From Escherichia coli (lineage in GTDB: Bacteria > Pseudomonadota > Gammaproteobacteria > Enterobacterales > Enterobacteriaceae): a DNA stretch of 64,000 nucleotides. Where the stretch lies: NCBI RefSeq assembly GCF_965641715.1, contig NZ_OZ282453.1. The stretch is one strand, 5' to 3'. The first letter of the stretch is position 1. Every line of letters begins with the position of its first letter. Shown here in pieces: positions 45,001 to 48,000 of the stretch. Position numbers: made by a program.

Positions 45001-48000
45001 ATAGGGAATCGAACCTGCAAATCAGGTAATAAAAAACCGCCATCAGGCGGATTGGTGTTCTTTCAGTTCTTCAATTCGAATATTGGTTACGTCTGCATGC
45101 GCTATCTGCGCCCATATCATCCAGTGGTTATAGCAGTCGTTGATGTTCTCTGCTTCGATAACCCTGTTGAATGGCTCTCCATTCCATTCACCTGTGACTC
45201 GGAAGTGCATTTATCATCTCCATAAAACAAAACTCGCCGTAGCGAGTTCAGATATAATATCCACCAAAGGCAGTAGTTGCTTGATGCTAAGAATTATTCA
45301 ATATCTATTCCTGTAATATCTTTTATCTTTTTCCTTGCAAAGCCTTTTGCTAGTGATTTTGAAACACTCATAAGTGTACTAATTCCCTCATCCTTAAAGT
45401 TTGTTTTTATAGCTTGCCAGACATCCTTTTGACGTAAGTCAGCAATAAAATCATGCCCTCTTGCTGTCAACCTCAGTGGTACTTCGATCCAACTATATCC
45501 AACACCTTCCCCTAACGCTTTGGACATTATATGACCGAACCCAGGTTTTCCATCAACCCTGACTATTAATTCGTAGTCACATAATAATCGCATATGGAAA
45601 ATAAAATCTTGGTCATATCTATTAAAGCCATTATCCTCTAGTTCACTAAGCATCGTGTCAGGGCCACGAGTTTTTTCGAATGCGATAAGTAGATCTTTTA
45701 GATATTGCTGGTCTAATTTCATTGCCGCCTCCGTGACATGTCACAGAGATTTATATCATTAATTTTGTTTCGTGCCAGCGTTTGGTCACCCAGCATTGTG
45801 AGTCACCATTACACGGGCATGAATTAACAGGAACTCTCTCGCCGCACTTACCTCAACGTTTTCTGCTGATCGATTTTATACGCCAGCGCACACGTGCATC
45901 ATCCTGGCGGCTCAGTAACGCGATGTACTCACCAAACTCGCAAGGCGCACGCCTGAAGCGACGCGTGGCACAGTTACGCTCCAGCATTTCAATTTCCTGA
46001 GCATCAAGTACAAGCTCCAGCTTACGCATACCGGATGATGCTTGCTTGGCTCTCCGATCGGCTTTGTGCTCTGTTGCTGATTTAGCCATTCTGCTTTTCC
46101 TGCATCAGGAGAAAGACAATCATGGCGGCGCGGATACTTCCGGTATCTTTTTACGCGATATTCCCCTTCAATGGCACATACAAGAAGAGAGCCATCAACA
46201 GGAGTGATTGAGGAATCGACAACCAGCAACGCTTAATTATCTATAGTGTCGTATTTGCTTCATAAAATATGGCGAATAACACAAAGCCCGCAGCAGCTCA
46301 TTGTGCGGGCTTTTCTTATACCTACTTCCTAGAGATAATTCTATGGAGGCATTAAATCAATACTGTCATTGGTAATATCATATTATCTAAAAGTCTTTCC
46401 ACTTTTAACATCTAGGTATATTCTGTTCGACAACGTCATTCCTCCGCAATATGTGAAATAGATGTTTTCACCCTTATTGCTTGATGCCATCCACCCTCCG
46501 ATTTCCTTAAAATCGCTTTCCGTGCAGACCCCTTCATTTATTAACTTCCTAGCTGCCGAAGAAAACTCTTTTTTGTATATACGGTAGTCATCAGATCCTT
46601 TGATTAAAGTATCATCTCCGCTCGCATTTTCAGCAGGATCTGATGGCCTTTCACTGCTAAGATCACTAAGTTTAACCCATTCTGAAAACTTTCCATTAAC
46701 GATTCCATTTTTTCTTGTGCAGGATTTATTACCTTCTTTAATATATTCGCTTTCCCCTCCAACACATGAGGCTGAATATGGCTCAGTTATACGAACCCAT
46801 TCACCTTTTTTTTCTAGAAAATCTACGCCTTCCCTGAAAAATAGTTTCCCAGCCACTCCACATTTACTTGAAGGGCAGGTATGTCTTTCCGTTCGATCAA
46901 CAACAACCCATAGTTTTGATTCATTTTTTGCCATTGCCGATGGTATTTGAGATGAGACAATTAACGTAAGCCCTAAAATTAGTATTGATTTTTTCATTGT
47001 AATTTCCTTTTACTTTTTACAAAGCGTTTAATCATGGCTGATTATCTCTAAGCGTAGTAACAGCCTTGTGCGAAACATGTTACCAAATCGCCATTTCAGT
47101 GTATCCGCAGTTAGGCTGCCACTTCAAGGATTCCTAATTACATGGTACGTAAGCGTAAAATCCCGTTGGTTGGCGGGTAATAACTCTGATCAAATCTCCC
47201 TTGTCTTTTGCTCTTACGTATGCAGCTCTTGTGTATTCAACCCAGGCCTCCAGTTCAGCAATACGCTTACTTCCATCCGAGATAACACCTTCTACTCACG
47301 CTGCTCGTTGAGTTTTGATTTTTGCTGTCTCCAGCTCAACACGCAGTTTCCCCACCGTTAGCGCAATATCCTCGTTATCCTGGTCGCGGCGTTTGATGTA
47401 TTGCTGGTTTCTTTCCCGTTCATCCAGCAGTGTCAGCACAATCGATGGTGTTACCAGCTCATGGAAAAGGTCCGCGTCAAATCCCCAGTTGTCATGCATT
47501 GCCTGCTCTGCCGCTTCACGCAGTGCCTGAGAGTGAATTACGCTCACTTCGAACCTCTCTGTTTACTGATAAGCTCCAGATATTCCTGGCAACTTGCACA
47601 AGTCCGACAACCCTGAACGGCCAGACGTCTTAGTTCATCTATCGGATCGCCACACTCACAACAATGAGTGGCAGATATAGCCTGGTGGTTCAGGCGGTGC
47701 ATTTTTATTGCTGTGTTGCGCTGTAATTCTTCAATTTCTGATGCTGAATCAATGATGTCTGCCATCTTCCATTAATCCCTAAATTGTTGGTTAATACGCT
47801 TGAGGGTGAATGTGAACAATAAAAAAGGAGCCTGTAGCTCCCTGATGATTTTGCTTTTCATGTTCACCGTTCCTTAAAGACGCCGTTTAACATGCCGATC
47901 GCTAGGCTTAAATGAGTCGGTGTGAATCCCATCAGCGTTACCGTTTCGCGGTGCTTCTTTAGTACGCTACGGCAAATGTCATCGACGTTTTTATCCGGAA

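Follow-up and report, generated by a model that had tools for sequence, protein, structure and literature searches.

A candidate moron of an Escherichia coli lambdoid prophage encoding a predicted exported two-domain protein

Lambdoid prophages carry envelope morons such as bor and lom of lambda, cor of phi80 and gp15 of HK97, which are extra genes of deviant GC content, patchy among phages and followed by a terminator, and whose products go to the envelope and benefit the lysogen or exclude phages. A gene sharing these traits was analysed in a 64,000-nucleotide stretch of Escherichia coli DNA (assembly GCF_965641715.1, contig NZ_OZ282453.1; the whole stretch is called the window below), where it lies at 46383..46997 on the (-) strand, inside the early-left region of a lambdoid prophage, and encodes a protein of 204 amino acids (aa) that is likewise predicted to reside in the envelope. 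The 204-aa protein lacks a lipobox and resembles none of Bor, Cor, Llp and Lom in sequence; the first three of these are lipoproteins, and Lom is a beta-barrel of the outer membrane. Morons of the bor, lom and cor type occupy the late or tail region, whereas this gene lies in the early-left arm and has a candidate promoter only. The category is a familiar one, a prophage moron encoding an envelope protein; the protein itself is uncharacterised.

Three further groups of proteins served for comparison. SH3b wall-binding domains (PF08239) occur in lysostaphin, in the cell-wall-binding domains of endolysins and in NlpC/P60 proteins. The 204-aa protein differs from these by lacking a catalytic domain, for which reason an endolysin or NlpC-P60 hydrolase was rejected, and by two extra predicted disulfides and a 30-residue insertion; its Pfam match has an E value of 0.047. 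Spackle (Sp) and Imm of phage T4 are phage-encoded, early, envelope-located and lone-acting, and may serve as a working model by analogy. T4 Sp carries a signal peptide and is a periplasmic inhibitor of the incoming tail lysozyme. The likeness is conceptual, since neither sequence nor fold is similar and the sole link is one fusion to the membrane domain PF14373. Finally, Ivy, MliC/PliC, PliG, the Tai/Tsi proteins of type VI secretion systems (T6SS) and DUF1311/LprI_N (ScwA) are alike in being small, Sec-exported, disulfide-stabilised, stand-alone and often encoded on mobile DNA. The 204-aa protein shared neither a motif nor a fold with any of these, and no adjacent effector gene was present in the contexts examined. 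A known lysozyme inhibitor was rejected, as no match to PF08816, PF09864 or PliG was found.

Coding evidence, export signals and domain structure

The following features were assigned to the gene and its product.

46383..46997, (-) strand: 204-aa open reading frame (ORF; stop codon included in the span) with an ATG start, equal to WP_000748282.1, PHROG 8310
46929..46997, (-) strand: predicted signal peptide, residues 1-23, MKKSILILGLTLIVSSQIPSAMA followed by K, of the signal peptidase I type without a lipobox, assigned by inspection and from the AXA-type N-termini of homologues
46662..46919, (-) strand: SH3b-like domain, residues ~27-112, with Cys 41, 46, 78 and 93 and a Cys-containing insertion of ~30 residues
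46386..46625, (-) strand: undescribed C-terminal alpha-alpha-beta-beta-beta domain, residues ~125-204, with C158/C184 and SDD, GGW and YFTYCGG motifs

The coordinates, strand and ATG start given for the ORF in the earlier note were confirmed exactly, and a ribosome-binding site (AAGGAA, 47004..47009) lies 7 nt 5' of the ATG. The DNA is 100% identical in E. coli TL20, which lists the product as WP_000748282.1, a "hypothetical protein" assigned to PHROG 8310 (function unknown). At E<=1e-19, 83 homologues were found in Escherichia, Pseudomonas and Aeromonas with 60-70% identity, most of them exactly 204 aa long. Compared with the copy in E. fergusonii, the nonsynonymous and synonymous substitution rates were 0.056 (dN) and 0.77 (dS), respectively, giving a dN/dS of 0.07. 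Because of this ratio, the 83 close homologues and the retention of all six cysteines, the ORF is, on comparative sequence grounds, a real gene under strong purifying selection.

The N-terminus, judged by inspection, consists of a charged n-region (MKK), a hydrophobic core (SILILGLTLIVSS) and a c-region with an A-x-A site (QIPSAMA, then K), and AXA-type N-termini were also seen in the homologues. The Sec signal peptide of the earlier note was thereby supported. The predicted mature protein comprises 181 aa (~20 kDa; isoelectric point ~8.2) and contains six cysteines (residues 41, 46, 78, 93, 158 and 184), all conserved, in agreement with the multiple cysteines noted before. The first cysteine is residue 41, and no lipobox (L-[AS]-[GA]-C) closes the signal peptide; a lipoprotein of the Bor/Cor/Llp type was rejected on this ground, the Pfam LPAM_1 match (E 0.11) covering residues 1-15 only. 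C158 and C184 were invariant in 221/221 family sequences, and the four SH3b cysteines co-occurred, being all present in 109 sequences and all absent in 8. Co-variation supports disulfide pairing to the extent of the C158/C184 invariance and the all-or-none behaviour of the other four, and nothing finer. A hydrophobic segment lay upstream of the domain in 163 of the 222 family proteins starting with Met. From its sequence the protein looks exported and disulfide-bonded, and everything points to the C-terminal domain being an extracytoplasmic, disulfide-stabilised module.

Structure prediction, which the earlier note had proposed, gave a two-domain AlphaFold model from a 41-sequence alignment with a predicted local distance difference test score (pLDDT) of 90 and a predicted template modelling score of 0.72; residues 1-24 were the only low-confidence stretch, which is consistent with a signal peptide. 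In the model the N-terminal domain forms an SH3 beta-barrel whose fold matches solved SH3b domains. The Pfam SH3_3 (PF08239) match of the 204-aa protein is sub-threshold, and 8/24 relatives reach E<=0.001, the best at 2e-7.

The C-terminal domain modelled alone gave a pLDDT of 92.7, and a fold search with this model against the Protein Data Bank (PDB) gave no match. As the domain has no Pfam, NCBIfam or structural reference entry, it appears to be an undescribed domain family. Residues conserved at >=90% are S135-D136-D137, G167-G168-W169, Y180-F181-x-Y183-C184-G185 and Y194-L195. A conserved patch comprises S135-D136-D137, D162, Y183 and N191. A profile of the domain collected 535 representatives at 50% identity, in which the domain is always C-terminal, either alone behind a signal peptide (~100 aa) or after SH3b; some SH3b-containing members are preceded by ankyrin repeats, a coiled-coil, or a cytoplasmic Zn-ribbon/HIRAN with a transmembrane (TM) segment. 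Foldseek against the AlphaFold database retrieved the domain in "SH3 domain-containing" proteins and in two annotated DUF1311/LprI_N, and a single family member is fused to PF14373 (Imm_superinfect). Searches with the 204-aa protein gave no NCBIfam match, 0 families at E<=1 among the PADLOC 2.0 models, and a chance match only (E 1.3) in a PDB sequence search. The C-domain profile matched de novo designed TIM barrels of the sTIM11 series in the PDB (E ~1e-8), no single stretch being significant; this was judged an artefact in which a repeated designed helix resembles the SDD...F..AA..LI helix and the matches are summed. No match to a phage structural or lysis-accessory family, which would have told against the earlier note's suggestion, emerged from PHROG (8310 is functionless), NCBIfam or PADLOC.

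Leader, transcription signals and mobility

The DNA flanking the ORF contains the following features.

46998..47139, (-) strand: 142-bp leader accompanying the ORF, defined by homology with an E. fergusonii phage-plasmid
47098..47127, (-) strand: weak sigma-70 candidate TTGAAG-18-TACACT (8/12), conserved in both contexts, from a lower-threshold scan
46275..46314, no strand assigned: GC-rich hairpin GCCCGCA/TGCGGGC with flanking A- and T-runs (free energy -24.9 kcal/mol, z -2.9)

DNA similarity to the E. fergusonii copy starts exactly at 47139 and stops 2 nt past the stop codon. Since the similarity is limited to them, the leader and ORF together constitute the unit that moved. In this pair the leader is 81% identical (117/144 columns), compared with ~52% at the synonymous sites of the ORF (proportion of synonymous differences 0.48), which is suggestive of functional constraint on the leader in the one sequence pair compared. 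The ~300-bp gap described in the earlier note is mostly the tail of a dead Ea22-like gene and the true leader measures 142 bp; the inference of a promoter from the size of the gap thus rested on a mis-sized intergenic region. The promoter search suggested there yielded no sigma-70 site of >=9/12 on the gene strand in a consensus scan, leaving the one conserved 8/12 candidate. No LexA box was found in the leader. A regulatory RNA was also rejected, as neither the leader nor the downstream region gave an Rfam match and the leader did not fold better than shuffled sequences (z -0.7). The hairpin, ~70 nt past the stop codon, is terminator-like and bidirectional; the scan detects it on the + strand, and it falls outside the segment common with the E. 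fergusonii copy. An own promoter is plausible from the sequence. Whether counted as an own promoter or as expression in the lysogen, it is a possibility a little short of evenly balanced, and pL transcription after induction, which is certain from the position of the gene, is an equally good default.

The lower GC content reported earlier was borne out, with 37.9% in the ORF and 38.7% in the leader, against 47.7% in the prophage and 52.2% in exo-bet-gam. Copies in Pseudomonas lie 5-10 points under their surroundings, and chromosomal copies in Shewanella, Vibrio and Celeribacter match theirs. The ORF was present in 131/5426 complete E. coli genomes (2.4%), whereas its flanks were far commoner (411 and 1289 records); the whole 1.1 kb was matched by 128 records. 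The isolated phage Chlobot carries the same module in the same slot ahead of xis-int, and IncF plasmids of Enterobacter, Klebsiella and Citrobacter with a captured prophage fragment carry it as well. Homologues were further located after hot and a HumD-like S24 peptidase gene in an 88-kb E. fergusonii phage-plasmid, on a 5.3-kb ColE1-type Citrobacter plasmid, directly after the integrase in small Pseudomonas islands, between a Q-like antiterminator and holin amid restriction-modification and toxin-antitoxin genes in an Aeromonas prophage, and just 5' of the large terminase gene in a viral contig (L055). Stand-alone C-domain genes likewise occur in prophages and integrase islands. Among the genes beside the homologue on Pseudomonas islands, on the ColE1-type plasmid and on the phage-plasmid, a regulator was the only one with a defence or functional PHROG match, and a conserved partner gene was rejected, as neighbours differ in every context examined. 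In four strains (NZ_AP039439.1, NZ_AP027854.1, NZ_OY754443.1 and NZ_AP027713.1), the insertion sequence IS1 lies in or beside the gene and the match is split into pieces ~777 bp apart.

Because relatives sit in quite different places, these data support the view that the gene is autonomous mobile cargo, probably a moron in the Hendrix sense. Its presence is patchy, its composition deviates and a terminator-like hairpin follows it, albeit outside the segment shared with E. fergusonii. Of the moron proposal in the earlier note, the mobile cargo part therefore stood (patchy, low in GC, in varied slots), whereas the own promoter is represented by the weak 8/12 candidate only.

Distant relatives (~30% identity) are conserved on Vibrio chromosomes (loci L093-L114), where an N-terminal membrane anchor replaces the cleaved signal peptide. 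In most of ten Vibrio loci the gene is divergent beside a GGDEF-EAL gene, with secDF near and no operon. A homologue of 50% identity was also found between umuD- and umuC-like genes, with gaps of 45 and 10 bp, on two metagenome contigs:

L017, 4019..6411: umuD-homologue-umuC arrangement
L018, 4760..7152: umuD-homologue-umuC arrangement

Such a slot is odd for a periplasmic protein.

Proposed function and alternative explanations

Overall, the most satisfactory reading makes the gene a functional accessory cassette, horizontally mobile and situated in the delayed-early, att-proximal arm of the prophage, that encodes a wall-tethered periplasmic protective or exclusion factor; this reading is held tentatively and with somewhat less than even confidence. 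The protein would pass through Sec, lose its signal peptide after AMA23 and form three disulfides, giving a soluble 20-kDa two-domain periplasmic protein. The N-terminal SH3b domain would most likely tether it to peptidoglycan, a prediction from the modelled fold that we consider evenly balanced. The C-terminal domain, found elsewhere alone behind a signal peptide, would be the working module. Because there is no conserved partner and the gene rides phages, phage-plasmids, plasmids and integrase islands, the protein is proposed to work in the envelope without a partner, in a protective or excluding capacity. Bound to the wall, it might block or sequester an incoming wall attack, such as the tail lysin of a superinfecting phage, a T6SS or bacteriocin muramidase or amidase, or lysozyme. 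Taken by itself, the protective or exclusion role is doubtful. The hints toward it are the C-domain fusions to DUF1311/LprI_N and the one fusion to PF14373 Imm_superinfect. DUF1311/LprI_N has been cited as associated with T6SS immunity and lysozyme inhibition (PMC12135965), and also as a periplasmic cell-wall regulator with no demonstrated inhibitor activity (PMC7933661).

Several observations weigh against this proposal. The hints from domain fusions are indirect and small in number, and no functionally characterised homologue was found, PADLOC and NCBIfam being empty. An SH3b fold, here taken from a model, is no proof of peptidoglycan binding, and the Zn-ribbon/HIRAN and TM fusions suggest a generic wall-binding or sensor module. 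With no sigma-70 site of >=9/12, expression may be from pL only, after induction. Given the IS1 insertions, the gene is dispensable in the hosts bearing them. In addition, the distant relatives in Vibrio and Rhodobacteraceae carry a membrane anchor and are encoded on chromosomes outside mobile elements, and fit a housekeeping wall-associated role as well as exclusion.

The gene could instead be a delayed-early helper of the lytic cycle, expressed from pL only under N antitermination after induction and serving the phage and not lysogenic conversion, for example through superinfection exclusion in the latent period (as with T4 Sp/Imm) or wall conditioning before lysis. Its position downstream of gam-bet-exo on the same strand in the pL operon, the lack of a strong promoter of its own and its retention in the isolated phage Chlobot are in keeping with this. 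N-modified polymerase reads through terminators in lambda and would pass the hairpin. Against it stand the leader, which is conserved above the neutral level and accompanies the ORF to a non-lambdoid phage-plasmid and to different operon settings, and the homologues found where a lytic programme is lacking, on a ColE1-type plasmid and in small integrase islands; such a helper is accordingly unlikely, if far from negligible. A host-directed conversion or virulence factor, which would inhibit lysozyme or a host wall hydrolase or alter the surface in the manner of Bor/Lom or Ivy/PliC, is improbable. A small exported, disulfide-bonded protein encoded on a prophage would suit it, the C-domain fusions carry the LprI_N 'lysozyme inhibitor' annotation, and clinical and animal isolates are among the host strains. 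Nevertheless, sequence and fold matches to Ivy, MliC/PliC and PliG are absent, LprI_N itself has no demonstrated inhibitor activity (PMC7933661), and an animal-specific role is disfavoured by the frequent occurrence of the family in bacteria from soil, marine and wastewater habitats (Pseudomonas, Aeromonas, Vibrio and Rhodobacteraceae).

The two metagenome contigs described above raise a link to the SOS response, in which a wall-remodelling or sensing accessory tied to SOS/translesion modules would be co-expressed with umuD/umuC-like genes and act on host peptidoglycan under stress. The homologue after humD in the E. fergusonii phage-plasmid, the HumD remnant beside the gene in the window, and umuDC within a few kb of the homologue in L064, L091 and L104 point the same way. 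The arrangement was, however, seen at 2/45 representative-genome loci only and the leader has no LexA box; in the window, the cassette stands in place of the humD 5' part and its LexA-box promoter and did not join the operon. The pattern is accounted for by shared residence in the cargo that mobile elements carry, and a functional umuD/umuC operon was demoted to such co-residence on account of the 2/45 count and the missing LexA box, leaving the SOS link highly improbable. A decaying, non-functional passenger ORF was suggested by the flanking pseudogenes and by the IS1 disruption in some strains, but is effectively refuted, with a negligible residual probability, by the dN/dS of 0.07, the high-confidence fold, and the retention of the 204-aa length and six cysteines from E. 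coli to Pseudomonas and Aeromonas.

The wall-tethered protective or exclusion factor may also be considered at the level of its C-terminal domain (SDD...GGW...YFTYCGG, invariant disulfide, at least 535 clusters), which might represent a new widespread periplasmic family of single-protein exclusion or immunity factors. Phages, plasmids and islands would carry these modules, often aimed at the wall by SH3b, and neutralise the wall-degrading enzymes of superinfecting phages and competitors. This wider proposal is speculative and rather unlikely as it stands. Nothing was found in the literature on WP_000748282, Chlobot or SH3 periplasmic exclusion proteins of prophages.

Lysogen phenotypes such as exclusion, competitor immunity and virulence have a main source in the accessory genes of temperate phages, most of which are still "hypothetical". 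The present case is unusually tractable. It concerns one predicted-exported protein for which a confident two-domain model is available; the gene is under strong purifying selection, has a defined leader of 142 bp, and is carried by the cultured phage Chlobot and by common strains open to laboratory work, such as ATCC 8739. A functional assignment would extend to a domain family that comprises several hundred clusters in Proteobacteria; if no phenotype were seen, the gene would be an ordinary moron of unknown role.

Prophage setting and neighbouring genes

Window coordinates correspond to those of the annotated TL20 locus (L001) plus 34199, and the gene order of the lambdoid prophage there agrees with the early-left placement made in the earlier note. 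On the (-) strand, N-side genes, ral, cIII, kil, gam, bet and exo are followed by DUF1317, DUF1382, an orf and a TraR/DksA-like gene, and then by an Ea22-like pseudogene, the 204-aa gene, a HumD/UmuD'-like fragment annotated as a "DNA repair protein", a pseudogene, DUF2513, an orf and torI/xis, after which the prophage end adjoins the upaE locus. The two broken genes flanking the cassette are as follows.

47140..47547, (-) strand: degraded Ea22-like gene with an in-frame stop at 47296, filling most of the supposed gap (from translation)
46122..46229, (-) strand: HumD/UmuD'-like S24 peptidase remnant, residues 46-82 only, with a mosaic breakpoint at ~46232

The Ea22-like frame, translated on the (-) strand, runs past its in-frame stop to ~47140 and matches other Ea22-like genes in a patchwork of short stretches; by these sequence features the remnant is a degraded mosaic joint, which gives the region its intergenic appearance. 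The HumD remnant shares ~87% DNA identity with the humD genes of P1-type phage-plasmids. A prophage of E. coli MLI108K3 (L020) is 97.6% identical over window positions 45028-46232 and diverges beyond. Residues 1-82 of its HumD-like gene (3923..4230) are preserved, preceded by a perfect LexA box (CTGTATATACATACAG). As this prophage retains the humD 5' part and the LexA box, the cassette and ~150 bp have therefore replaced both in the window. Lambdoid prophages of this lineage thus formerly had an SOS-regulated humD-like gene, now decayed.

At the torI-type excisionase end (window ~35780..44260 and 44785..44985), no adjacent integrase was seen; it may sit at the opposite end of the prophage, as in KplE1. 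This prophage end adjoins a phase-variable autotransporter locus, ipuA - helix-turn-helix regulator - upaE, and a 176-aa membrane-anchored ORF lies near it at 43729..44259. Finally, a tRNA-Asn is annotated in the prophage between the Q antiterminator and holin (L001 23948..24022, ~window 58147..58221).

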